DNA from: Gammaproteobacteria bacterium
GTDB taxonomy: Bacteria > Pseudomonadota > Gammaproteobacteria > G965277405
Direction of reading: 5' to 3'
Length of the DNA stretch: 64,000 nucleotides
NCBI GenBank assembly: GCA_965277405.1
Contig: OZ255726.1
Span: 736,001-800,000, forward strand
Part shown: in pieces, positions 27,268 to 43,940 of the stretch
Position numbering within the stretch: the stretch's first letter is position 1
How the letters are laid out: each line of letters begins with the position of its first letter
Notes under the pieces: model-generated
Seen by the model: the letters and a program-made list of their open reading frames with translations, nothing else
Databases searched by the model: none
What the model was told of the DNA's origin: nothing
Made by a program: the position numbers and the translations under genes

Positions 27268-29007
27268 ATGCGAACACATTACTGCGGTGAACTCACCGCT
27301 CAACATATTGATTCAGACATAATAATCTGCGGTTGGGTGCATAATAGGCGCGACCACGGTGGTGTCGTTTTTTTGGATATGCGCGACGTACGTGGCATTG
27401 CACAAGTTGTCTGTAACCCAAACAATCAGGCAGCATTTGCCATTGCCGATAAAGCGCGCTGCGAATTTGTGTTGCAAATCAGCGGCCGCGTTCGCCAACG
27501 ACCAGCAGGCACGGTCAATGCTGCGATGCACACTGGTGAAATAGAAGTCGAAGCCAGCACTGTGACAGTATTGGCAGGCTCAAAACCACTGCCATTCCCG
27601 CTTGATGAACACTACAACATTGGTGAAGAAATCCGCTTGCAATATCGATTTTTAGATTTGCGCCGCCCTGAAATGCAGAAAAATTTTTTCATGCGGCATC
27701 AAGTGATGAAAATTGTACGGTCGTATCTTGATGAAAACGCCTTCATTGATTTAGAAACACCTATGTTAACACGGGCGACCCCAGAAGGTGCGCGCGACTA
27801 TTTAGTGCCAAGCCGTACCCACCCACACCACTTTTTTGCCTTGCCACAATCGCCACAATTATTCAAACAGTTACTCATGGCCGGCGGATTTGATCGCTAC
27901 TATCAAATCGTTAAATGTTTTCGTGACGAAGATCTCCGCGCAGACCGTCAACCTGAATTTACCCAAATCGATATTGAGGCAAGTTTCGTTGATGAAGCAA
28001 CGATTATGGACTTGACCGAACGCATGCTTAAACTACTGTTTTCCCAAGTTCTCAAGATTGATCTGCCAGATTTCCCCCGCATCTCATACCAGCAGGCGCT
28101 GGAGCTGTATGGCTCGGACAAACCAGATTTACGGATTTCGCTCCAGCTCGTTGACGTTGCTGATGACATGAAAAATGTCGCATTCAAAGTGTTTTCTGGT
28201 CCTGCCAACGACCCAAACTCACGTGTTGCTGCGCTCAAAGTGCCTGGTGGAGCCAAGCTCAGTCGCAGCGCTATCGATGAATATACAAAATTCGTTAGCC
28301 GCTATCGCGCCAAAGGTTTGGCATATATCAAGGTCGAAGACGATGGGCTGCATTCGCCAATTTTAAAATTTCTGCCAGAAAATGTCATCGAGCATCTGCG
28401 CAGCAAACTTGCGCTTGAGCCAGGGGACATTGTGTTTTTTGGCGCAGATAAAACCCAAATCGTCAACGACGCACTCGGCGCACTGCGGACAAAAATTGGC
28501 ATGGATCTCGGCTTGATACAACCCGGTTGGCAACCACTTTGGGTGACTGATTTCCCAATGTTTGACCACGATGTCCACACAGGTAAACGTACCGCGCTCC
28601 ACCATCCGTTTACCGCACCAATTGACGTGAATGCTGCGCCCGACACCATGCTCTCGCGCGCCTACGATATCGTTATAAATGGCGTAGAAATTGGCGGAGG
28701 CTCGATGCGCATTCATACCGCAGATATACAGGAAACAGTGTTAGGTTTACTCGGCATCAACCAGCAGCAGGCACAACAGCAATTTGGTTTTTTGCTTACA
28801 GCACTCGAGTACGGCTGTCCCCCGCATGGTGGTATCGCGCTTGGACTAGACCGGCTTATCATGATGATGTGCGGCAGCGACAGTATTCGCGATGTCATTA
28901 CTTTTCCAAAAACCCAAAGTGCTGCATGCTTACTCACCAAAGCTCCCGGCAGCGCATCAAAGCAACAATTGCAAGAGCTCCACTTACGCCTGGCAAAATT
29001 TGACTAA
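27268..29007 (+). CDS. aspS: Aspartate-tRNA ligase
   Basis: [56 protein letters not shown]. Confidence 0.97.
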
Positions 29008-29319: not shown

Positions 29320-30030
29320 ATGGCAGGACATAGCAAATGGGCGAACATTCGCCACAGAAAAGGCAGACAAGACGTGAAGCGTGGCAAGGTTTTTACCAAA
29401 CTGATTCGCGAACTGACTATCGCAGCTAAAGGTAGTCCATCACCAGAAGATAATCCACGGCTGCGCTTGGCGATTGACAAAGCACTCTCGGCAAACATGA
29501 CCCGCGATACGATAGATCGCGCAATTGCCCGCGGATCTGGGACGGCTGACACGGGTCATATGGATGAAATCACCTACGAAGGGTATGCGAACGGAGGTGT
29601 CGCAATTCTGGTTGCAGCAGTGAGCGATAACCGCAACAGAACAGTTGCTGAAATTCGCCATGCCTTCAGCAAAAACGGCGGCAACCTCGGGACAGATGGG
29701 TCGGTGGCGTATTTATTTGAGCGGCGCGGCATGTTGATGTTCGCTGCCAGCGTTGACGAAGACCAGCTGATACAAATAGCACTTGAATCTGGTGCTGATG
29801 ATGTAATCAACGAAGAAGAATGCTTTGTGGTATATACTCAACCAGATAGTCTGCTGACAGTTCTTCAAGCCTGCCAAGCCGCCAACATTCAGCCGCAAAA
29901 TCATGAAATCGCCATGGTCGCCCAAACCACTGTTGCCTTAGATGACGCAGCCAGCGAATCATTAGCGCAACTGATTGACGCACTCGAAGACCTTGACGAT
30001 GTACAAAATGTGTATTCAAACGCGCAGTAA
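29320..30030 (+). CDS. yebC: YebC/PmpR family protein
   Basis: MAGHSKWANIRHRKG, YEGY, DNRNRT, DLDDVQNVYSN. Confidence 0.95.
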   Translation: MAGHSKWANIRHRKGRQDVKRGKVFTKLIRELTIAAKGSPSPEDNPRLRLAIDKALSANMTRDTIDRAIARGSGTADTGHMDEITYEGYANGGVAILVAAVSDNRNRTVAEIRHAFSKNGGNLGTDGSVAYLFERRGMLMFAASVDEDQLIQIALESGADDVINEEECFVVYTQPDSLLTVLQACQAANIQPQNHEIAMVAQTTVALDDAASESLAQLIDALEDLDDVQNVYSNAQ

Positions 30031-30032
30031 CC

Positions 30033-30512
30033 GTGCGCATTTTTGGGATTGACCCTGGATCTCGCATCACCGGGTTTGGCTGTATTGATATCGTCGACCG
30101 CAACATCAGCTACGTCGCTTCGGGGACAATTAAAGTCAGCCACCATCGATTCCCACTGAACCTCAAATTTTTATTTTTACACACCCGCGAATTGATGGAA
30201 AAATACCACCCAGATGAATGTGCTATTGAACAAGTATTTGTTGCCAAAAATCCATCGAGCGCCATCAAGCTCGGTCAAGCACGCGGCGCATTATTGTGCG
30301 CGATGATGATGCAATCAACCCAAGTTGCCGAATATGCCGCGCGCTCGATCAAACAAGCAGTTGTTGGCAACGGTGGCGCCAGCAAACAACAAGTACAATT
30401 TATGGTACAAGCAATCCTCAATTTGCCAAAACAATCGCAGCCAGACGCGGCAGATGCGTTGGCTATTGCTATTTGTCACGCCCATGTACGCAACGCAGCA
30501 ACTGCAAAATAG
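30033..30512 (+). CDS. ruvC: Holliday junction resolvase RuvC
   Basis: GIDPGSRITGFG, KLGQARG, DAADALAIAICH. Confidence 0.96.
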   Translation: MRIFGIDPGSRITGFGCIDIVDRNISYVASGTIKVSHHRFPLNLKFLFLHTRELMEKYHPDECAIEQVFVAKNPSSAIKLGQARGALLCAMMMQSTQVAEYAARSIKQAVVGNGGASKQQVQFMVQAILNLPKQSQPDAADALAIAICHAHVRNAATAK

Positions 30513-30735
30513 CGACCAGCCTCAATAACAAATTAACAGCATTAGCTACAAACTTCTGTTGCTGAGCGCTAATAAGAATGGGGAGGTTACACTCAAATAA
30601 TGAAGTTTTCTTAAATACAGCTACAGGGAAGCACGCATAGGGTGCAAAGGTAAATGCAAAGGTAAAAGTAAATACTGCCTGCACGAAATCCAACAACATG
30701 TTGGTTTGCAATTTTTTACTAATGTAAAAAATCTT

Positions 30736-31848
30736 GGGTCAACTATAAAAGTGCGGTGTATTTATTATATATTTGTTTAAAATTAAGCTAAAATTAAAAT
30801 TATGGATGCAAGTCAAGTAAAAGCATATATTCAAGTTTATCACAGTCTAACCAGGAGCATTTATTAAAATCCTTAAGCAGGATACAAATTGAATCGGATT
30901 ACACAGAATTATTGCAATTACGTGGAGATGCCGTTGATGACAAGCGATCAGAATGCCCTCATTGTCAAAGTACTAATTATTACAAGAATGGAAATGACAA
31001 AGGGAGTAGCAGCTATAAATGTAAGGATTGTCAGCGTGGTTTTACAGAATATACAGGGACGTGGATCAGTGGGCTTCATAACAAGCACTTAGTCATTAAG
31101 TTTTTAAAAACGCTGGAATCTACTTTAAATTTGATTAAAATTTCTCAGGAGACAGGACTTGACCCAGTTACTATTTTTAATTGGCGGCACAAATTTTTAT
31201 CCTCCCAAGAATCTGTTGAGAATCAAAAACCATGTAAGGGATAATCGCAGTGGATGAAACTTTTTACTTACAAAGTCAGAAAGCAAAGAAGTGTACCGAT
31301 AGAACTCCAATAAATAGAGGTGGGAGACCCACAAGAGGAATAACAAATAACGGACCTCTGTACTAACAATTATGGATAAATCAGGAAATCCAGCATATAG
31401 GTTCATCAATATGGGTAGAATTTCAACTGACGATATACAAAAAGCCATAGGAAATAGAACCTCCAAAAGAACCATTCATTGCAGTGATGGACACAACAGC
31501 TATAAATCTTTTACCAACAAGAAGAAAATAGAACATCATATTCTAAATGCCACTATCTAAATACCACTAAAGGAATAATGGTAAATGGAGATTATCACAT
31601 ACAACATATTAATATGTTTGCATACTGGAATTAAAATATCTTTAACTATAATATACAAGGCGTGTCAACAAAATACTTGCAAAAGTATTAAAATTGGCAA
31701 GGAATAAAAGACCTATTTAAAGACACTACAAAATGGATAAAACGGTACTTGCATTATCCTTACAAAAGCAGCTGCAATCACCATTTATAATAAAATAGAA
31801 AAAGATTATTTGAAAATTGATAAGTCATCGCAACTTTCAAGTTGAGTC
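30736..31848 (+). pseudogene. Decayed IS1595-family element, AT-rich
   Basis: CPHC..YKCKDC zinc ribbon, FNWRHK, DET, CSDG, YHIQHIN, GVSTKYLQ fragments; imperfect TIRs GGGTCAACT / AGTTGAGTC. Confidence 0.8.
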
Positions 31849-32310
31849 AACCCATACAACTATTTAATGGAGATACGCCTAAGCAATTATTAGCTAGAAG
31901 CAGATATATTATAGCTAAAAAATAAAATGAGTGGACAGAGAGTCACAAACAAAGAGCTACATTGTTATTTAAACCATAACCACATTTAGAAACAGTTTAT
32001 AACCACACTCATGAACTTAGAAATATCTATGAAAACACAGATAAAGTAATCGCTCAAGAGCGTTTTGACAAATCGATTGAAGATACATTTGAAGCAAAAT
32101 TAGAAATTTTTTATACAACAGCGCATACTGTAAAAGCTCATTGTGATAATATACTCAACTTTTTTGACAACAAAATACCAATGCCAAATCTTTTAATGCT
32201 AACATAAAACTCTTTATGGCTAACTTAACGGGGTAGTAGCTACTACTTTTTTCCTCATTAGATTACATAAATTATTCGCCTAATCTCCGAAATTGAATGT
32301 GCCCCGAAAA
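31849..32310 (+). pseudogene. ISL3-like (Bacteroidetes ISAon1-type) transposase 3' remnant
   Basis: FNGDTPKQLLARSRY motif, then ILNFFD..NA..FNA fragments. Confidence 0.6.
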
Positions 32311-32336
32311 GACAACACAAAGATTACTGCGTGAAT

Positions 32337-34775
32337 TTAGTTTTCTTTTTCAATTTCCCAACTCACCATTCTCATCTCGTTATACGTAAACTTATTCTCG
32401 ATTTTTCTTTTTAGGTCAGTAATGTTCTCATACTTGGTTTCTTTCATTATTTTTTTAAGGGCTATATATTTTTCTTTGGGAATCAAATCCGTAATGTTCA
32501 ACTCTCCTGAGGCTACAAATTTCATAAGATGGGTTTCTATAGTGCCAGTAACTAAGCCTCGCTCTCTAGAAATTTCAGCGACACTCAGTCCATTTTTAAA
32601 TAATTTATAAGATTCTTTGTCCGATTCCCCCTTTTTTGGAAGCAACTTTTTTTCAGGAGTATCTTCTTTTAGGGCAATCGCATTTTTTTCGCAATAGTCT
32701 TGTATAAGCTCAGTGATTTTAGCACCGTATTTTTGAACCCTCACTTTCCCCATACCATTTATAGCAGCTAGTTGCTTTGTTGTTGTAGGAAGTGTTTCGC
32801 ACATTTCACAAAGCGATTTTTGAGTAAAAACCTGATATAATTCCACATCATAATTAAGTGCGAATACAGCACGTAAGGCTCGTAATGCCTTAAATAATAC
32901 AGGCTGTTCTGAAGTTACCGCATATTCTTTTTTAACCTTTGTAAGGGTAGGCTTTTGTAGAATTGCCTTTGCTCGCAATTCTAAATACTTCTTAATGGTA
33001 AATCCGCTTTTTAACCCGTTAAAACAGTATAATTTGTTTCCCAATTGCTCGTCTAGGATTTTAAATTGCTTATGCATATCCTTGTCAACTGCCTTGTTTT
33101 CAGTAGAGAAATTAAATGCTTCTAAAGGGGTCTTAATATAATTTTCTGTATGTGTTATAAAATAATTTAGGGCTTTTAGTATACGTTCTTGAACAGCAGT
33201 ATCTCTTTCAGGCTCTAAAATATCTGTACTTAGTTCTTTTAATTGATTGCTAAAATTATTGGAGATTTTTAGTAGTTTAATAATGCCCTCATCTTTTATA
33301 GTGGTCAGTGGGTCAATAGCATTGCCTTGGATACTTGTTTTATTAGTGTAATAAATATCAATTAACCGTTTTACAGGGTAAAGAAAGCTATAATAATCAA
33401 ATAATTCTTTGATAAGACTCAATTGGTAACTCTTCTGCGATTCGTTTAATATTTCTGTATTTGGAGGATTGTCCTCAACATTTTTATTAAAAGAAGTAAC
33501 CCTAATATCATTAATAATACTTTGTTCGCTAAGGGGACTTTTTAATACAATGCCTTCCAGTGTTCTACATCTGCTCAATGCAACATAGGTCTGCCCATGG
33601 GCAAAGGATTCTTTGGTATCGATAATGGCCTTTTCAAAAGTTAACCCTTGACTTTTATGAATGGTTATCGCCCAAGCTAGTCGTAGCGGAATTTGGGAAA
33701 AAGAGCCCGTAATATTTTCAGAAATTTCTTTGGTTTCAGGGTTTATGGAATAACTTACATTTTCCCAAACCTCTGCCGTGCTTACAATATCTTCTTCATC
33801 ACTAGGGCAACGAACCGTTATCTCTTCATTATCTATATATACTATTTTACCGATTTTTCCGTTGAAATACCTTTTGTCAACAGAGCTATCGTTTTTAATA
33901 AACATTACTTGAGCCCCCTTTTTTAACTCTAATTTTTTATGAGTAGGAAAAGAATATTCAGGAAATTTCCCATTTACATCGGCTGTATAAAAGAAACTTT
34001 TTGTCTTAATTTTTTCAAGCTCTATACAATTCATTTCATCAGCCCTATGGTTATGTGTCGTTAGGGTAATATAGCCATCGTCCTCTTTTGGTGAAAAATT
34101 GGGTAAGTAACGCTTATTTAAGTCGGTTATCGATTTTTTTGTGAGGCTATTGTTCCGTATTTCGTTTAGGATGACAATAAATTTTTCGTTGTCCTGTCTG
34201 TAAATATGTTTTAATTCAATACTAATGGCTAGGCATTGTTGAAAGGCAGTACTGCTAAAGAAATAAGGCGTTTTATAATAGGGTTGTAACAATTCCCATT
34301 CGTTATCTTTTACAACAGGAGAAAGTTGTTGCAGATCGCCTATCATAAGTACTTGTACCCCACCAAAAACTTTGTTCCTGTCTTTATAACGCCTTAGAAC
34401 TTGGTCTATTCCGTCTAATAAATCGGCACGAACCATACTAATCTCATCGATGATCAATAAATCTAAAGAGCGGATAATATCGATTTTGGTTTTGTTAAAT
34501 TTATTTTTAAATGATGTTTTTGTATTCTGGGCTTGCACTCCATTTGGAAGTATTGGTCCAAAAGGCATTTGAAAAAAGGAATGTATAGTAACTCCTTTGG
34601 CATTAATTGCAGCGACACCAGTAGGAGCAACCACTACCAAACGCTTTAATGAATTGATTTTGATATTATGTAAAAATGTGGTTTTTCCGGTACCGGCCTT
34701 TCCTGTCAGAAAAATGGAGCGATCTGTTTTTTCAACAAAATTTGTGGCTAATTCTATCTCTGTATTTATATGCAT
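32337..34775 (-). CDS. PIF1/RecD-like helicase with HRDC and C-terminal HTH domains
   Basis: LTGKAGTGKTT, APTGVAA, IIDEISMVRAD, LAWAITIHKSQG, QTYVALSRC; HRDC-like ING.GKVR.QKYG; Flavobacteriaceae-like. Confidence 0.9.
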   Translation of the reverse strand: MHINTEIELATNFVEKTDRSIFLTGKAGTGKTTFLHNIKINSLKRLVVVAPTGVAAINAKGVTIHSFFQMPFGPILPNGVQAQNTKTSFKNKFNKTKIDIIRSLDLLIIDEISMVRADLLDGIDQVLRRYKDRNKVFGGVQVLMIGDLQQLSPVVKDNEWELLQPYYKTPYFFSSTAFQQCLAISIELKHIYRQDNEKFIVILNEIRNNSLTKKSITDLNKRYLPNFSPKEDDGYITLTTHNHRADEMNCIELEKIKTKSFFYTADVNGKFPEYSFPTHKKLELKKGAQVMFIKNDSSVDKRYFNGKIGKIVYIDNEEITVRCPSDEEDIVSTAEVWENVSYSINPETKEISENITGSFSQIPLRLAWAITIHKSQGLTFEKAIIDTKESFAHGQTYVALSRCRTLEGIVLKSPLSEQSIINDIRVTSFNKNVEDNPPNTEILNESQKSYQLSLIKELFDYYSFLYPVKRLIDIYYTNKTSIQGNAIDPLTTIKDEGIIKLLKISNNFSNQLKELSTDILEPERDTAVQERILKALNYFITHTENYIKTPLEAFNFSTENKAVDKDMHKQFKILDEQLGNKLYCFNGLKSGFTIKKYLELRAKAILQKPTLTKVKKEYAVTSEQPVLFKALRALRAVFALNYDVELYQVFTQKSLCEMCETLPTTTKQLAAINGMGKVRVQKYGAKITELIQDYCEKNAIALKEDTPEKKLLPKKGESDKESYKLFKNGLSVAEISRERGLVTGTIETHLMKFVASGELNITDLIPKEKYIALKKIMKETKYENITDLKRKIENKFTYNEMRMVSWEIEKEN

Positions 34776-34931
34776 TGTTTTTTTGTAAATTACTGATGTT
34801 TACCTTTCTCCCATCTGGAGCTACTAAGGGCATATCAGTTTTTTTAAGGTTGCCACCAAATTTACCAAATACTAGATTTAATTGCAAGTGCAAGAAATTG
34901 ATGTATTTTTGATAAAATTAAAAGAATTATT

Positions 34932-35186
34932 ATGACAGATAACATTAGTACGAAATGGTTAGAAAATATGACTTTCAAACGCAATAACCCTGCCGAATTG
35001 GATTTAACAATGAATATTTCTCCTGAAGATGGGGAGACGGAAATGGATACCGGCCTAAGTCATTAATGCTTGCAGCTCTTGCGGGTTGCTCTGCATTGGA
35101 TATTGCTGCGCTGATAAAAAAATGAAATTGGACATTTGTGACTTCCAGATAGAAACCATTGCGAACCTTACCGACGAACACCCTGA
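34932..35186 (+). pseudogene. OsmC-family gene 5' fragment, frameshifted and cut by IS
   Basis: MTDNISTKWLENMTF...RPKSLMLAALAGCSALD...IANLTDEHP; Bacteroidetes-type TATTTTTG -7 box at 34904-34911. Confidence 0.7.
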
Positions 35187-36385
35187 GGAAGTTCTGAAAA
35201 CCCCCAAAAATCATACTAATCTGCCATACTGCCCTAACTTTTTTTTGAGAATTGATATAAAGCAAATGACGTTTACAGATTTGGCATACGCACATAAGCA
35301 ATGCAAAACTCGTAGAGAAATATTTCTTGAGAAATCAGCAGCTGTTATTCCATGGCAGCAGTTAGATGAATTAGATGAAGTTGTCGCCAAACACTATACT
35401 AAAACTACGCAAAACAGGCGCTCGTCCATAATATCCGCTGCAAACGCTACTGCGTCTACACGTTATGCAAGTAGTGTATGACTTCAGCGATGTAACGATG
35501 GAGGATATATATTGTACGAAGTCGATTGAATGCGGCTGTTTGCTCGTTTAAACCTCGACAAAATACCCGACGAGACCACCATCTTGAATTTCAGCAGATT
35601 GCTGGAACAGTACCGCCTCTGTGAAAAAATATTCAGGCGAATCAGTCAACAACTCAATAACCATGGATTATTACTCCGCGCAGGCAAGCGTTGACGCATC
35701 AATCATCGACACCCCAACAACAACCTAAGAATAAACAGCAAGCCAGTGATCCGCAAATGCAGCAAACAAGGAAAGGTAACCAATGGTACTTTGGCATGAA
35801 AGTTCTTGTTGGTGTAGATGAAAGCTCTGGGATGATTGAAGCCCGCAACCACGGCGGGTAATGTCAACGATGTGACCCTGATAAACTCTGGCATGGCGAT
35901 GAACGACGTGTTTTGGCGATGCGGGTTTATGTAGCTGTGCAGCAACGATTTAAACATCAGCAACGGGCAATGTGGATGGTGAGTCAGCGTATCGGCAAGC
36001 AGCGTCAATTGAAAGCAGGGAGTGTCCAGCAGCAGCTTGAGAAATTGCCAGCCAGTGTCCGCGCCAAAGTTGAGCATGTATTCTTTTATATGAAACGCAT
36101 GTTTGGATATAGCAAAGTATGCTATACTATATATACAAGTTTAGCAAAGAATACCAACCGAACTATACATGCTTGCTGGACTTACAAATCTTGTGCCCAG
36201 TTACAAGTATTTGCCGCAACCACATGGTTAGTGCGTCCAAAACATTGGAAATTCAGCAAAAACGCATGAAAAACAATAAAAATTGAACAAAAATAGCTTT
36301 TTCATCTTTTCATCTTTTCACTTTATCGTTTTTGAGCATTACTGCGTCGAGAAAATCAAATGTAGTGAATTGTGCAGAGGTTTCC
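35187..36385 (+). mobile_element. Decayed IS5-family element (type B)
   Basis: Ends GGAAGTTCTGAAAA / TGTGCAGAGGTTTCC; KQMTF..TRREIFL, IPDETTILNF, KGNQWYFGMK, VRAKVEH fragments. Confidence 0.85.
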
Positions 36386-36686
36386 TAAAACATGAACTAA
36401 TCAAAGTTTTCCATAATAAAGAACTCATAGAATTAGGAAAAAATCATCCCATTTTTTTCCAAAAACATTCCTTTCCTAAAGGCTTGCCCAAAATTCATGA
36501 GTATAATGACAAGCGCCACCAAGCCTTTGGTGTTTTTGATAAAACAGATTAGTTTTACTTTTCACCTACGAGAGCGATTTAAGTGATGGATGGCAAGACA
36601 AAAAAGTAAATAAGGACTTCGCTGAAATTAGATTAAAAGCATTGCGTATGGCTGCGAATATTATATCTTACGTATTTAAAAATTAA
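36386..36686 (+). pseudogene. DUF4159-like protein 3' fragment
   Basis: HPIF..FPKGLPKIHE, YESDLSDGW, ALRMAANIISY; frameshifted; 5' end cut at the IS. Confidence 0.65.
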
Positions 36687-36690
36687 GAAT

Positions 36691-37779
36691 ATGACCTCAA
36701 AGACTATAGCAAATGGTATTTTAAAAGCAATAGGTATTTTAATAAGTGTCTTTTTAGGGTTATTTTTTTTATTTAAGATACAATCCGTCCTTATTTATTT
36801 GGCAATCGCTGTGGTTATAGCTCTCATAGGACGTCCTATAGTACTGTTTTTAAGAAGAAAATTAAAATTACCAAATATCTTGGCTGTAATAATAACAATG
36901 ATTCTGCTAATCGGGATATTAGTTGGCGTCATTGCTCTTTTTATACCTCTGTTGGTGCAACAAGGACATAATTTGTCATTGTTAAATATTGATGAGTTAC
37001 AAAATAATATAGAAAACATATACCGTCAGTTTATTAATTATTTCAAAATAAATTCCACGGATATTGAACAGAGAATTAAATATCCTAATTTTTTAAAATC
37101 CATAGATTTTGGATTTATCCCTAATTTCTTAAATTCGATTGTTAGTATTCTGGGTAGTTTAAGCATAGGTATTTTTTCTGTTCTCTTCATTACTTTTTTC
37201 TTCTTAAAAGACAGTAGCTTATTTGAAAGGGGCGTATTCGTTTTTATCCCTTCGGATAAAGAGGTTAGATTAAAAAAATCTATAGAAACGATTAAAAATT
37301 TACTTTCTAGATATTTTGTGGGGCTTGTATTTCAAATCCTTATATTGTTTGTAATATATACTGTTGCCCTATCTATTTTCGGAATAGAAAACTCGGTGGT
37401 AATAGCCTTCCTTTGCGCCTTGCTGAACCTAATCCCATATATTGGTCCCATCATTGGCGGAATCTTAATGTTAATCTTATCTATGACAAGTAATTTAGGA
37501 GCCGATTTCAGTACGGTAATACTACCTAAAACGTCTTATGTAATGATTGGTTTTGGTTTTGGGCAATTGGTCGATAATTTTTTCTCACAACCCTATATTT
37601 TTTCGAATAGTGTCAAATCTCACCCCCTCGAAATATTCCTTATTATAATTATCGGAGGACTTTTATTCGGTGTTACCGGACTGATTTTGGCCGTACCAGG
37701 ATATACCGCCATAAAAGTAATTTTAAAAGGCTTTTTTGCTGAGAATGAAATAGTAAAATCTTTGACCAAAAACTTATAA
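36691..37779 (+). CDS. AI-2E family (PerM-like) transporter
   Basis: NLIPYIGP, QLVDNFFSQPYIFS.SVKSHPLEIF; Flavobacteriaceae-like. Confidence 0.9.
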   Translation: MTSKTIANGILKAIGILISVFLGLFFLFKIQSVLIYLAIAVVIALIGRPIVLFLRRKLKLPNILAVIITMILLIGILVGVIALFIPLLVQQGHNLSLLNIDELQNNIENIYRQFINYFKINSTDIEQRIKYPNFLKSIDFGFIPNFLNSIVSILGSLSIGIFSVLFITFFFLKDSSLFERGVFVFIPSDKEVRLKKSIETIKNLLSRYFVGLVFQILILFVIYTVALSIFGIENSVVIAFLCALLNLIPYIGPIIGGILMLILSMTSNLGADFSTVILPKTSYVMIGFGFGQLVDNFFSQPYIFSNSVKSHPLEIFLIIIIGGLLFGVTGLILAVPGYTAIKVILKGFFAENEIVKSLTKNL

Positions 37780-37826
37780 CCAATACTCTAAACAAGGAAA
37801 TTTTGTTGTCTAAAACCTCATTCCAC

Positions 37827-38103
37827 TTATATAAAAGCCGAGTGTCCTGTAATATCCATTCCGGTTATTAGCAAATGAATATCGTGTGTACCTTCGTAGG
37901 TAATAACACTTTCAAGATTCATTATATGACGCATAATACTATATTCTCCAGAAATTCCAATAGCCCCCAATACTTGCCTAGCTTCACGGGCAATATTCAA
38001 GGCCATTTCTACATTGTTTCGTTTCGCCATAGAAATTTGGGTAGTAGTTGCTTTTCCTTCTTTTTTTAATTGTCCCAAACGTAGTGCCAATAGTTGTGCT
38101 TTT
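37827..38103 (-). pseudogene. Acyl-CoA (glutaryl-CoA-like) dehydrogenase 3' fragment
   Basis: [24 protein letters not shown]; cut at the IS TIR at 38104. Confidence 0.85.
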
Positions 38104-38198
38104 GGGACTGTTGCAAATAGAAGACAAATAATCTTATTGATTAGGTATATTGCTTATAGCCTGGTGTAAAATCATTAAACTCAACTACAACCTTATAT

Positions 38199-39222
38199 GG
38201 CTCTATTTGAATAAATTGTTGAAATATGATATGCTCCAAGTATCAATCACATCCACAATGCTCTAAATCATGAAGACCTCTGAATTTAATCAGTTAAAAC
38301 AAGCAGTTAATGGGCTTTCTCCAAAGCAAAAGGCTGACTTAGAACAGCATTTAATCAATCCAGAATCGCAACCTCAAGTGCTGAAATTACTTGAACAAGC
38401 GGTACATGGATGCCCTCATTGCCAACATGACAGTACCTATAAGTGGGGCACGTCAAAAGGACGTCAGCGGTATCGTTGTCGATCATGCTTAAAAACCTAT
38501 AATGCACTAACGGGTTCAGAATTGAATGGTCTGCATAAGCCTGAACTGTGGGAACAATACTGCCAAACGATGGTTGATTCAAAATCGCTGCGCATTGCTG
38601 CAAAGGAATGCGGCATCAACCTCACCACGGCATTCACATGGCGTCATAAATTTCTTAAATTGGCTGATTTACTTATGAGCAAGCAGCTTGAAGGCATTGT
38701 CGAAATAGATGAAACTTGGTTTAAATATTCTGAAAAAGGCAGTCGCTATTTAACCACTGGCAAGCCGCGAAAACGCGGTAATAGCAAAGCATCTACAGTG
38801 AAAGCTGTTATTGGCATCGATCGAAGTGGCAACATTGTCGATCAGGTTGTAGAGCACTTTACGCTGGATCAATTACAGGCAACCTTTGTACCTAAACTCG
38901 CCGACGATCTGGTTCTCTGTACCGACGGTCATATCAATTATGAGCATCTAGCCAAGCAGAAAAATATCAATCATGTCGTGTTAAATCAAAGCCTTGGTGA
39001 GCGGGTCAAAGACAAAGTTTTTCATATTCAAACGGTGAACGCTTACCACATGAGGCTCAAGCAATGGCTAGCCCCTTTTCATGGTGTTGCAACTAAAAAT
39101 CTTCATAAATATTGTGGATGGTTTCGTTGGTTTGAGCTTAATAAACGGGGAGATATATCCCCTGCCAGCTTCATGAGGGATATGCTGTATACAGCATTTC
39201 AACAAACTATCAGAACATAGCC
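38199..39222 (+). mobile_element. IS1595-family element, intact transposase 38270-39220
   Basis: CPHC..YRCRSC, EIDET, CTDG, HIQTVN, FHGVATK; TIRs GGCT..TTGTTGAAAT; (A)CCTTATAT duplication on both sides. Confidence 0.93.
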
Positions 39223-39241
39223 ACCTTATATTTTAAATATC

Positions 39242-40213
39242 ATGTATAAACAAGTAGAAATGATTACCCTAGCAGATCTAGTAGCCGCTGATCATATATA
39301 CCGCAAGTTCGCTCAATTAATAGATATTCGCCGCTTAGATAATAAATATTTAAAAACAGCACAAGGCTCTAGCAACTATAAAGGTTATGGTATAGAACTG
39401 TTATTTAAAGCACTACTGCTGCAACACTTAGAAAATTTAAGTGATAGAGAGCTTGAAAGTTACTTAACAGAAAATAACGCCGCTAAATGGTTTTGTAATG
39501 TAGCGTTAACCGCGCCTACGCCAGATCATACAGTATTTACAAGAGCTAGGGCGCGTATAGGTACGCACCAATTATCTAAGATATTTGCAGATGTTCGCGC
39601 TCAATTGCAACAACATGGGTACATGAATGAGGTATTTACTTGTATAGATGCCTCTCATTTAATAGCTAAAGCTAATTTGTGGGAAGAGAGAGATAGAGTA
39701 ATCCAGCAAAAGTACGCCAAACTTAATAATGAGGTTTTACCTAAAGTAGCTACAGACAAACAAGCCCGCATTGGCTGCAAAGGTAACGGTAAATTTTGGT
39801 ATGGCTATAAGAAACATATTAGTGTTGATATGCAGTCAGGCTTGATTAATAATAAAGTAGCGATAACACCAGCTAACGTAACAGACGGACAAGGTATTGG
39901 TCATGTTATTCCAACACAAGGAGCTATGTATGCAGATAAAGGTTATTGCAGCAAAGGAGCAAGACATGCAGCCGCTAAAAAGCGTTGCCATTTGGCAGCT
40001 ATAAAAAAGAACAATATGAAAGATAAAAACAAAGACCAAGATACATTCTTTAGCAAGCTGCGTTCTCCGTATGAAAGAGTATTTTCAAAAACCAATCATC
40101 GGGTTAGATATGTGGGAGTAGCAAAGAATCAGTTTGCGATATTTCTGGAGTCGCTAGCATTTAACCTGAAAAGACAGGTGGTGTTAGACGTAAAGTATGG
40201 TGGCGTTTTGTAG
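39242..40213 (+). CDS. IS5/IS1182-like DDE transposase, apparently intact
   Basis: LSDRELE, PDHTVF, IDASH, WYGYKKH, ADKGY, RSPYERVF. Confidence 0.9.
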   Translation: MYKQVEMITLADLVAADHIYRKFAQLIDIRRLDNKYLKTAQGSSNYKGYGIELLFKALLLQHLENLSDRELESYLTENNAAKWFCNVALTAPTPDHTVFTRARARIGTHQLSKIFADVRAQLQQHGYMNEVFTCIDASHLIAKANLWEERDRVIQQKYAKLNNEVLPKVATDKQARIGCKGNGKFWYGYKKHISVDMQSGLINNKVAITPANVTDGQGIGHVIPTQGAMYADKGYCSKGARHAAAKKRCHLAAIKKNNMKDKNKDQDTFFSKLRSPYERVFSKTNHRVRYVGVAKNQFAIFLESLAFNLKRQVVLDVKYGGVL

Positions 40214-40351
40214 GATAACTGCACCAAAAAACAGCTATTTGACTGAAAATACCAGTAAATATTGATTGTTAAACCTTGGATTGATAGAAAATTCTGTGTT
40301 TGTACAAAATTTTTAATTTTTATCAAGTTTTAACCTATTTGCAACAGACCC

Positions 40352-40657
40352 ACTTAAATTTTCTAAGTGTTGCAGTAGCAGTGCTTTAAATAACAGTTCT
40401 ATACCATATCCTTTATAGTTGCTAGAGCCTTGTGCTGTTTTTAAATATTTACTAACTAAGCGGCTAATATCTATTAATTGAGCGAACTTGCGGTATATAT
40501 GATCAGCGGCTACTAGATCTCCTAGGGCAATCATTTCTACTTGTCTATGCATGATATTTAAAATATAAGGTTGTAGTTGAGTTGAATGATTTTACACCAG
40601 GCTATAAGCAATATACCTAATCAATAAGATTATTTGCCTTCTATTTGCAACAGTCCC
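40352..40657 (-). pseudogene. Inverted 5' fragment of the same IS as 38104-40351
   Basis: Near-identical first ~67 codons plus left TIR; truncated exactly at the neighbour's right TIR. Confidence 0.9.
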
Positions 40658-40700
40658 ATTATGGCAGATTAACCAGTTTTTTGGGGGTTTTCAGAAATGC
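40658..40700 (-). mobile_element. Isolated IS5 type-B left end
   Basis: Reverse complement GGCATTTCTGAAAACCCCCAAAAAACTGGTTAATCTGCCATAAT matches 35187, 54451 and 63574 ends; CTAG flank. Confidence 0.7.
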
Positions 40701-40950
40701 CCTAGACCATGACCATTTCATGACCATTTGCTAGGCTGCCTTGCGGACCAGGTTCCGCCAACTTTTGCCAGTATGACCAATTGATTGCGCCTGCAATCTA
40801 ACATCGTCCGTCAAGCAACAAGTGTTATGTTTGTGTGTTTCCCCAGCGTTACAACACCATCTTTTGATCCGTAAACCTCAATATCCCGACTTGATAGGTC
40901 TAGTAGAAGCGTTAGCCCTAACTGGTCAAGTAGTTTGTTTAAATATTTGA

Positions 40951-41115
40951 TTATTTTTTTCGCATTTTATGCAACAATAATTTAATTTGTTCATATTCTT
41001 CTAGGCTCGTCCAAAGTGACCGCTTATTTCGAAGAAGCGACCGTTGTTTTATCGCAAATTTACGTTGTCTTTCTGCGGCACTTTGGGGTTGAGTATCGGG
41101 CGGGTTATCTGTCAT
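40951..41115 (-). CDS. Small basic hypothetical protein (54 aa)
   Basis: Manual translation MTDNPPDTQPQSAAERQRKFAIKQRSLLRNKRSLWTSLEEYEQIKLLLHKMRKK. Confidence 0.45.
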   Translation of the reverse strand: MTDNPPDTQPQSAAERQRKFAIKQRSLLRNKRSLWTSLEEYEQIKLLLHKMRKK

Positions 41116-41526
41116 TTTGAATATTTAGTTATAAATACAGGTGAGCATAACAAAACCGCCGAGGATTTATCTAGGCGGTTGAATTAATCTTGACTTTATT
41201 CAAAAGCTCTATATGTTTCTTTTAAATTACAGCTAACTGCTTTAACTTAGACTACTTCGTTGTGATTTGCTAAATCATAAAATTATAGTCGGTTAAACTA
41301 CCCTGATAATGTTTGTTATGATTGATGTGCTGATACAGCACCTACAAAATATAATACTCTCTGTCAGCATGCGACAACCCTTATTATTACCAAAACACAA
41401 GAATTGACACAGGATTTTGCATAGTGTAGAAGAGTTAGATAGCGTAGAAAAATTAGCTTGCGTATTGGGACCTTAGTATTCTCTACACATTATTATCCTG
41501 CAATGTTATGTTGCGCTTATCCATAG

Positions 41527-41820
41527 GGAAGCTCTGATTAACTCGCTGATGGAGCGAGTTTACCTGTAATTGCTGATGATTGCAAGGCGCAAACCGCTAA
41601 GCGCATGCCGTAGCATATACGCCAAGGGATGCAACACAGCAAGTACCGCTGCAGCAAACCCAAAGTATATTCAACACAACGACGGGAAAAAACGCTGCGC
41701 TAACGTCGTTGCAGCACTTGGCAGCACCCACAGGACCACCAGTATTATCTGCGCACTGCGCTTAAGTTTCATCAGCATTTTTTCTCCGTCTCGCCGATCA
41801 TGGAATTAATCAGAGGTTCC
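41527..41820 (+). mobile_element. ~300-bp MITE family, complete reference copy
   Basis: TIRs GGAAGCTCTGATTAA / TTAATCAGAGGTTCC with ATAG duplication on both sides. Confidence 0.92.
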
Positions 41821-41877
41821 ATAGGCTGCTTTCAGACCTTCAATTGAAGAATATCAACAAATTATAGAGCTATGCAG

Positions 41878-41992: not shown

Positions 41993-43940
<1,948 letters not shown>

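Follow-up and report, generated by a model that had tools for sequence, protein, structure and literature searches.

Pieces of Flavobacteriaceae core DNA next to ruvC in a gammaproteobacterial chromosome: probable eroded remains of a cross-phylum import

We analyzed a stretch of 64,000 nucleotides (hereafter the window; positions 736001-800000 of contig OZ255726.1, assembly GCA_965277405.1) from a gammaproteobacterium whose genome is a single contig of 2,174,577 bp with 44.8% GC. Directly after ruvC the window holds an AT-rich block (30.6-38.1 kb, ~33% GC) in which whole and broken genes of Flavobacteriaceae type lie among decayed insertion sequences (IS). The features of the block and its right border are listed below from left to right with window coordinates and strand; L001 is the helicase locus of G001, an uncultured Flavobacteriaceae metagenome-assembled genome (MAG).

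30736-31852 (+): decayed AT-rich element of the IS1595 family with several frameshifts
~31853-32250 (+): C-terminal relic of an ISL3 transposase (PF01610, E 1e-7, 32.5 bits against a cut-off of 23)
32337-34775 (-): intact gene for a Pif1-HRDC helicase of 812 amino acids (aa; Pfam PIF1, HRDC and HTH_40)
34796-34815 (-): remnant of the 3' end of a CMD-family gene, ~20 nucleotides (nt), of which 18/20 match L001 (compared by eye)
158 bp between helicase and OsmC: divergent spacer with -7 boxes at 34857-34911
34934-35186 (+): 5' fragment of an OsmC gene with two frameshifts, cut by the IS5-type relic (homologue in L001)
35187-36385 (+): decayed IS5-type element ('type B'), GC ~0.45
36386-36690 (+): 3' fragment of a DUF4159 gene with a 1-bp deletion (PF13709)
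36691-37779 (+): intact gene for an AI-2E family transporter of 362 aa (PF01594, 156.3 bits)
37780-37826: IS-free joint of 47 bp between the 3' ends of the AI-2E and dehydrogenase genes
37827-38103 (-): 3' stub of an acyl-CoA dehydrogenase gene (glutaryl-CoA-dehydrogenase type), last ~87 codons, open and cut by IS5 (PF00441)
38104-40671: right border, where an active IS1595 (38195-39223) interrupts a host IS5 copy, with a partial inverted IS5 end behind it (40351-40671; Pfam, NCBIfam)

The initial annotation had named the helicase-HRDC, OsmC, DUF4159, AI-2E and acyl-CoA dehydrogenase genes, and Pfam matches and homologues confirm this list together with its coordinates; its description of the genes as mostly truncated fits the fragments but not the helicase and AI-2E genes, which are whole and free of frameshifts. 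The helicase gene (GC 0.339; GC at third codon positions, GC3, 0.294) encodes a predicted Pif1-family SF1B core (PF05970, 95.2 bits against a cut-off of 25.9), and its residues 3-431 match Pif1 chains in the PDB with E values of 1e-95 to 1e-105. The host also possesses a shorter Pif1-like open reading frame (ORF) of its own, with 516 aa at genome 1631325-1632599 and 43% identity to residues 3-433 of the imported helicase. The CMD-family gene of L001 is a PF02627 gene of 200 aa. The OsmC fragment needs three reading frames and shows ~66% nt identity with several indels to the OsmC ORF of L001 (PF02566), and the PF00441 match of the dehydrogenase fragment covers 37827-38090 (-). Taken as pieces, helicase plus OsmC 5' fragment measure 2.85 kb, DUF4159 3' fragment plus AI-2E 1.4 kb and the dehydrogenase stub 0.28 kb.

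The base composition of the block is unlike that of the host genome in GC, GC3 and tetranucleotides, as is characteristic of horizontally acquired DNA. Along the window the GC content drops directly after ruvC from 0.47-0.53 (27.2-30.6 kb) to 0.29-0.37 (30.6-35.0 kb), returns to 0.45-0.48 at 35.4-36.2 kb and falls again to 0.28-0.35 at 36.2-38.2 kb, and 2-kb windows of the host genome have a mean GC of 0.448 with a standard deviation of 0.037, 23 of them lying below 0.35. GC3 is 0.29 in the helicase and AI-2E genes, 0.475-0.478 in the neighbouring aspS, yebC and ruvC and 0.34-0.35 in the G001 orthologues. A tetranucleotide comparison, proposed earlier as a check, gave a composition-corrected correlation of 0.19 for the block with the host and of 0.68 with flavobacterial DNA, the latter being inflated as the comparison set includes orthologues of the same genes, while random host windows correlate with the host at 0.886 +/- 0.085. 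The pieces have not drifted towards host composition.

Phylogenetically, the block points to the Flavobacteriaceae, as had been suggested from the sequence at first sight and as is now supported by the best loci, the closest proteins and a helicase tree. Among the best 80 genome loci for the helicase 79 carry Bacteroidota names and one is an 'uncultured bacterium', and the best of them is L001 with 77%. For each piece its genome G001 ranks among the closest relatives: helicase, AI-2E and dehydrogenase show 77-87% aa identity to it (AI-2E 77% to G001:C111, the dehydrogenase stub 87% to G001:C43), and the DUF4159 fragment shares 67-69% of its aa with its G001 counterpart, which immediately precedes the AI-2E gene. 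When members of its own 90% cluster are set aside, the closest helicase in a set of 5.8 billion proteins is that of a Cellulophaga sp. MAG with 79%, and no closer donor was found there; no helicase match above 78% was found among JGI metagenome contigs, and among 151 genomes drawn as relatives of G001, of which 33 match at E<=1e-100, the best helicases reach 77% and 76%.

A maximum likelihood tree was reconstructed for the helicase alone from 82 of 84 assembled rows (L061 and L124 were left out as shorter than 600 aa). The window helicase is sister to L001 with a Shimodaira-Hasegawa-like approximate likelihood ratio test (SH-aLRT) support of 91, and the enclosing clades with L002 and with Urechidicola are each supported at 99. 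Of the 82 rows, 54 carry the label Flavobacteriaceae. The remaining branching mirrors the flavobacterial genera, as expected of a vertically inherited core gene. Within the host class 45 of 300 genomes match the helicase at E<=1e-10 (the tally includes the unpublished genomes G043 and G300, with weak matches only), the best full-length match reaches 47%, and most of the others cover the helicase core or the HRDC part only. None of the 79 named best loci is proteobacterial; best hits in Proteobacteria had been named beforehand as an outcome that would speak against a foreign origin. The helicase is therefore nested within another phylum by phylogeny and AI-2E, DUF4159 and dehydrogenase are assigned by their closest matches, and to judge by these data the pieces come from a Flavobacteriaceae core chromosome. 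Another genome of the host class has, at locus L122 (G247:C16:50812-53211), a full-length Pif1-HRDC-HTH helicase of 823 aa with 47% identity to that of the window; it nests among Bacteroidales rows (SH-aLRT 91) and may represent a second, independent transfer from Bacteroidota to a gammaproteobacterium.

The block is genuine host chromosomal DNA and not a chimera. Three sequencing runs of one study (X1, X2 and X3), which may include the source sample, contain the stretch, and their short-read contigs were assembled independently of the genome. Contigs of X1 and X2 span 29800-30884 (ruvC/IS) with 0 mismatches, further contigs span 31739-32366 (ISL3 relic/helicase end) and 35064-35582 (OsmC/IS5 relic), and a contig of X3, in which parts of the block are without cover, spans 35934-36581 (IS5 relic/DUF4159). 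The depth of the junction contigs (262-277 in X1, 41-45 in X2) resembles that of the flanks (277.5 and 300.8 in X1, 41.8 and 45.4 in X2). In other assemblies, contigs of 236,205 and 75,807 bp carry variants of AspS, RuvC, helicase and AI-2E, a linkage that is deduced from equal bp figures across protein records. Moreover, a unique decayed IS of host type sits between two flavobacterial pieces, an arrangement that a misjoin would not produce. At 33048-33243, inside the helicase gene, the X1 and X2 contigs differ from the assembly at 5-9 positions, which points to strain-level variation inside the block.

The surroundings of the block are those of the host, with the following features to its left and, beyond the right border, to its right.

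27268-29007 (+): aspS (Pfam)
29320-30030 (+): yebC (Pfam)
30033-30512 (+): ruvC (PF02075, 180.9 bits; NCBIfam ruvC, 182.9 bits)
30513-30735: spacer 3' of ruvC, 223 bp, at the position of ruvA in relatives
41524-41823 (+): IS5-type miniature inverted-repeat transposable element (MITE)
41993-42280 (+): groES
42264-43940 (+): groEL ORF (Pfam Cpn60)

Since yebC, ruvC and ruvA are contiguous in 9/9 relatives' loci examined, the site of the block is a synteny break, and the abrupt AT-rich block first noticed directly after ruvC is confirmed both by the GC drop and by ruvA as the regular next gene. A replacement of ruvAB by the helicase was considered and ruled out because the genome has intact ruvA and ruvB genes at 1.782-1.784 Mb, 1.0 Mb from ruvC. 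In the spacer, 30669-30736 is a short host repeat with 89.7% identity to genome 2049551-2049617. None of the 40 nearest genomes compared, which are all same-class relatives from 40 different families and include the unpublished genome G043, carries the block. Outside its own cluster, none of the 5.8 billion proteins is more than 63% identical to the host AspS, and its named matches are all gammaproteobacterial, namely Saccharospirillum, Marinobacter, Halorhodospira, Luminiphilus and Halieaceae, which we take to be Gammaproteobacteria; as only same-class genomes are near, the host is a deep, poorly sampled gammaproteobacterial lineage. No recognisable ORF was found at 40672-41523, the window contains 0 tRNA genes, and Pfam detected no integrase, relaxase or Tra domain among 16 ORFs scanned. 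Thus, the integrase, tRNA-adjacent site and transfer genes of a classical genomic island, integrative and conjugative element or conjugative transposon were not found, in agreement with the earlier view that the block is not a coherent island. The MITE of ~300 bp accounts for most of 324 blastn rows genome-wide and exists in hundreds of copies, and it shares terminal sequence with the IS5-type relic, as contig joints from 35362 to 41524 and from 36241 to 41817 reveal.

The pieces of the block belong to loci that are not linked in flavobacteria. The earlier statement that ordinary chromosomal genes from at least two unrelated loci are combined holds for the ordinary core genes and their lack of linkage, while the count has to be raised to at least three. 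Three large flavobacterial genome records show helicase, AI-2E and dehydrogenase 0.18-2 Mb apart.

G427: helicase at 1.745 Mb, dehydrogenase at 1.524 Mb, AI-2E at 3.034 Mb
G430: helicase at ~1.316 Mb, dehydrogenase at 1.492 Mb, AI-2E at 3.353 Mb
G429: helicase at ~5.16 Mb, dehydrogenase at 1.36 Mb, AI-2E at 3.81 Mb

G003 has helicase (-, 251-253 kb) and AI-2E (+, 315 kb) on one contig, 62 kb apart and in the order and orientation of the block, and its dehydrogenase on another contig. Compared with such loci the block has lost genes. OsmC lies in the same divergent position beside the helicase in L001, L002 and L133, the closest loci that include it, each time with the CMD-family gene in between, and in L132 the CMD-family gene is directly upstream of the helicase with a different neighbour beyond it; the block retains only ~20 nt of this gene, which amounts to an internal deletion of 0.6 kb. 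Likewise, a THUMP-like gene (~395-413 aa) follows AI-2E in all five flavobacterial loci with enough flank (Pfam check for L081 only) and is absent from the block, where the dehydrogenase stub occupies its place. The joint at 37780-37826 showed no likeness to either G001 flank when the printed sequences were read by eye.

Insertion sequences delimit and divide the block. The leftmost 1.8 kb is IS debris and not flavobacterial housekeeping DNA. The initial label 'ISAon1-like' for the element at 30736-31852 could not be confirmed, as it is a decayed copy of the IS1595 family with Zn-ribbon matches below the Pfam cut-off. Annotated IS1595 transposases share 33-35% identity with it, the active IS1595 of the host 38% and an IS1595 ORF present in multiple copies in a Flavobacteriaceae genome 52%; the IS classification via plasmid records is at family level, with <=35% identity and no taxon signal. 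It is single-copy in the genome, with solo ends of 84-90% identity at genome 218.9, 456.2 and 2103.2 kb, and the read depth over 30642-31904 is 3-5x that of the flank in X1 and X2 and ~16x at 31763. Other genomes of the community must therefore frequently contain copies at least 95% identical to this single-copy relic. The ISL3 relic beside it, which had been overlooked before, is unique in the host genome (tblastn finds itself only).

Inside the block, the IS5-type relic at 35187-36385 has fragmented ORFs. That such a type-B element, which also occurs in host DNA, stitches the pieces together had been proposed and is borne out by partial relics at >10 other genome places with 75-91% identity. 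Its ends align with the ends of other relics, which have YTAR words as flanks, and its own flanks are CTGA on the left and CTAA/TAAA on the right, that is, two different target sites; the corresponding donor-type sites are CTAA in the OsmC gene of L001 and TTAA in the DUF4159 gene of L081. No matching 4-bp repeat was found as target-site duplication of this relic, and another relic copy is also without one, which makes this weak evidence. As it lies between two different target sites, the relic is apparently a recombinant of two insertions. At the right border the IS1595 is 99.4-99.8% identical to 5 other copies and the IS5 95-97% to other copies. With IS1595-type and ISL3 relics on the left and IS5 on the right, the block does not show the same IS at both ends as a composite transposon would. 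The IS5 relic with its two target sites, the deletion of the CMD-family gene, the missing THUMP-like gene and the IS5-cut right end suggest that the present joints are secondary, and we thus favour erosion of larger imports over the capture of tiny fragments.

Candidate expression signals of Bacteroidota type are also found. Excerpts of two publications give -33 TTTG / -7 TANNTTTG as the Bacteroidota sigma-A promoter consensus and describe leaders without Shine-Dalgarno motifs (PMC9723704, PMC6847099). In the block a -7 box TATATTTG lies at 30768-30775 in the left end of the IS1595-type relic, and the 158-bp divergent spacer contains TAAATTTG at 34857-34864 (-), facing the helicase, and TATTTTTG at 34904-34911 (+), facing OsmC. 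The boxes reported earlier are thus present, but the window contains TANNTTTG 70 times where 72.3 would be expected, so that the motif alone is not above chance and only the placement, with one box facing each gene, seems to carry weight. In L001, L002, L132 and L133 another gene intervenes and the boxes are not found conserved at the corresponding position. The start leaders of helicase, OsmC and AI-2E, read by eye, are A/T-rich and without AGGAGG, in line with the A-rich leaders without Shine-Dalgarno motifs described before.

Whole and broken genes differ in their decay. In ~835 bp of fragments there are 3 frame-breaking indels and in the 3,528 bp of helicase and AI-2E there are 0, where equal rates would let us expect ~12.7 with P(0) ~3e-6 by our own arithmetic. 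In two other host-context assemblies AI-2E differs by 1 aa from the window copy in each, the helicase by 9 and 18 aa (23 between these two copies), AspS by 5 and 3 aa and RuvC by 1 and 2 aa. These differences suggest tight constraint on AI-2E and relaxed constraint on the helicase. The branch pN/pS (nonsynonymous to synonymous differences) is 0.21-0.26 for the window and 0.11-0.14 for its sister; as a test of host selection it was set aside because the branch is mostly donor-lineage history.

The 90% cluster of the helicase contains eight variants, which are 95-99% identical over aligned residues, with 92% for a truncated one by another measure. Three variants are on contigs with host markers, and five are on contigs of 1,317,304, 1,174,332, 397,095, 85,496 and 67,087 bp. 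None of 18 other window proteins (AI-2E, RuvC, YebC, AspS, GroES, 10 more host proteins and the window's own three entries) is recorded on these five contigs when matched by bp figure, which is weak evidence as identical proteins are listed under the longest contig only. The 1,174,332-bp figure also carries P0260, a full-length dehydrogenase of flavobacterial type with 94% identity to the stub, which shows 94-97% to the full-length P0258, P0259 and P0260 and is closest to P0258 (84/87 residues). Additionally, an internal helicase contig has a depth of 362.9 in X1 and 66.7 in X2, ~85 and ~25 above the flank and junction contigs, variant AI-2E contigs add a depth of 21-26 in X2, and the X1/X2 depth ratio is ~3.5 for the extra helicase depth compared to 5.9-6.6 for junctions and flanks. 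Alleles are shared in a mosaic fashion among the eight variants, and the three copies from host contexts are not grouped in one clade. One variant, P0122, is without the first ~214 residues and has a shifted C-terminus, and it may be a decaying copy or an assembly error. We lean towards the view that the near-identical copies belong to a donor lineage that lives alongside the host, that the transfer was recent and that exchange was perhaps repeated, the alternative being differently arranged host strains; the co-occurring donor of the initial annotation has thereby gained indirect support from these copies and from the extra depth.

Taken together, the block is host DNA and likely contains the eroded remains of one or several imports from one Flavobacteriaceae lineage. 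One or a few episodes would have brought in larger flavobacterial tracts, possibly through free DNA that was taken up and then joined at a break in an illegitimate or homology-facilitated manner. IS5-type elements would have inserted into these tracts, and recombination of two IS5 insertions, illegitimate deletions and later IS5 and IS1595 insertions would have removed most of the import and created the present joints. The truncated genes would now be decaying, and helicase and AI-2E are probably under host selection, tight for AI-2E and relaxed for the helicase, or, alternatively, these open genes might have been refreshed by recombination with donor DNA. The 95-99% identical helicase copies in non-host contexts would place the donor in the same community and suggest a recent transfer with a few % of neutral divergence.

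Several points weigh against this reconstruction. The donor genome itself is not among the sequences compared, and the absence of the block before the transfer would rest on same-class relatives, none of them closer. A single import needs a tract of tens of kb or more plus the dehydrogenase locus, which is on a separate contig in G001 and G003, and the agreement in order and orientation with G003 has a chance of ~1 in 4. The reading of the IS5 target sites relies on 4-bp words beside a decayed end, and the other relic copy likewise lacks a matching duplication. Mosaic helicase alleles are not predicted by a single old transfer without later exchange, and the pN/pS of the window branch mixes donor-lineage with host time and says little on host selection.

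Alternatively, several small random fragments of a neighbour's chromosome might each have been captured at their present size, for instance to fill a break, which would make the joints primary. The short pieces (0.28-2.85 kb) from loci 0.2-2 Mb apart in complete genomes, the AI-2E/dehydrogenase joint without IS and the position of the site at a rearrangement breakpoint would fit such a capture, which was also the mechanism put forward originally. We nevertheless regard it as unlikely, as the joint between the helicase-OsmC and DUF4159-AI-2E pieces is an IS5 relic between two different target sites, the helicase-OsmC piece has a later internal deletion and the IS that truncates the right end retains 95-97% identity to other copies, all of these being secondary events that followed after the DNA had become resident. 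Together with the missing THUMP-like gene this speaks against the random fragments of the initial annotation.

We consider it quite unlikely that there is an ongoing cross-phylum gene flow in which the helicase serves as homology anchor for repeated recombination with DNA of a co-resident flavobacterium. If true, it would explain the mosaic alleles and why the host copies do not form a clade, and also why the whole genes have retained open frames and a foreign composition next to decaying truncated genes.

An assembly of the patchwork already in the donor, on a mobile element such as an IS-bounded segment, a plasmid or a conjugative element that arrived as a single unit, is very unlikely. It would agree with the AT-rich IS1595-type and ISL3-type relics directly beside the helicase; the best match of the former (52%) is a multi-copy Flavobacteriaceae element, and its depth of 3-5x the flank, up to 16x at 31763, indicates close copies elsewhere in the community. 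The scanned ORFs, however, include no integrase, relaxase or transfer genes, the two borders belong to different IS families, the IS5 relic inside is of a host family with host-like GC, solo IS1595-type ends at three other host sites point to a history of this element in the host, and helicase, AI-2E and dehydrogenase have the character of core genes inherited vertically.

An assembly or binning chimera with flavobacterial contigs misjoined into the gammaproteobacterial chromosome, the main alternative of the initial annotation, is extremely improbable: an organism with a near-identical helicase seems to be present in the same runs, which raises the prior for misjoins, and all three runs come from one study possibly including the source sample, but contigs bridge the ruvC/IS, ISL3 relic/helicase, OsmC/IS5 and IS5/DUF4159 joints, the first three with a depth that follows the host, the decayed host IS separates two flavobacterial pieces and two further assemblies have contigs of matching length with variants of all four marker proteins in different sequences.

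The host genome was also searched for comparable regions. A blastn search of the whole genome against 1.15 Mb of Bacteroidota loci, consisting of the helicase, AI-2E and dehydrogenase neighbourhoods only, matched just the block and conserved genes such as rRNA. Other large AT-rich islands at genome 245-253, 455-465, 1214-1221, 1602-1612 and 1923-1935 kb are defence islands with two GmrSD-type genes, two type I restriction-modification systems (one with Abi_2 and a nucleotidyltransferase pair, the other with RhuM), a DpnII system and an Eco57I-like methylase, and the island at 1026-1033 kb is the dnaA region. In total 27 ORFs from 9/11 AT-rich stretches were scanned, 23 with and 4 without a Pfam match. 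Most of the 23 belong to restriction-modification, GmrSD, Abi or DpnII defence or to the dnaA region, the remaining ones being an alkylmercury lyase, an L,D-transpeptidase, an SNF2 helicase, a glycosyltransferase and a MatE transporter, and no other stretch like the block in kind was found among these 27 ORFs from 9 stretches.

The block offers a natural, junction-resolved case of non-mobile core DNA that went from Bacteroidota to a gammaproteobacterium, together with its later fate: IS insertion, recombination between IS and deletion shred most of the import and two whole genes survive, both keeping candidate foreign expression signals in the form of Bacteroidota-style boxes and leaders without Shine-Dalgarno motifs. 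If the non-host copies are those of the donor, donor and recipient could be compared in the same samples, and both the joining mechanism and the expression would be testable. The event is clear but of a conceptually known kind, and alone it does not change the knowledge of horizontal transfer.

With known islets of horizontal gene transfer the block shares the sharp break in GC and tetranucleotides, the nesting within another phylum, the IS at its borders and the broken gene order, but it differs in having no integrase, tRNA site, direct repeats or adaptive cargo module, its cargo being fragments of donor housekeeping genes from three unlinked loci. In Acinetobacter baylyi, foreign DNA is reportedly integrated by illegitimate or homology-facilitated illegitimate recombination during natural transformation. 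The block resembles such integrations as non-mobile DNA of an unrelated donor lies in the chromosome without site-specific machinery and with one IS-free joint, and is distinct from them as a natural case across phyla. IS-mediated deletion and rearrangement are found in IS-rich bacteria that are host-restricted or recently bottlenecked; the IS relic between non-contiguous sequences, the IS-truncated genes, the split ruvC/ruvAB operon and the hundreds of MITEs correspond to this kind of erosion, whereas the eroded material here is foreign and stems from another phylum. Finally, the window helicase resembles Bacteroides Pif1 (PDB 5FHD, 5FTB and relatives) in its PIF1 domain, with residues 3-431 matching at E 1e-95, and differs from it by an extra C-terminal half with HRDC and HTH_40, a form that is common in Flavobacteriaceae.

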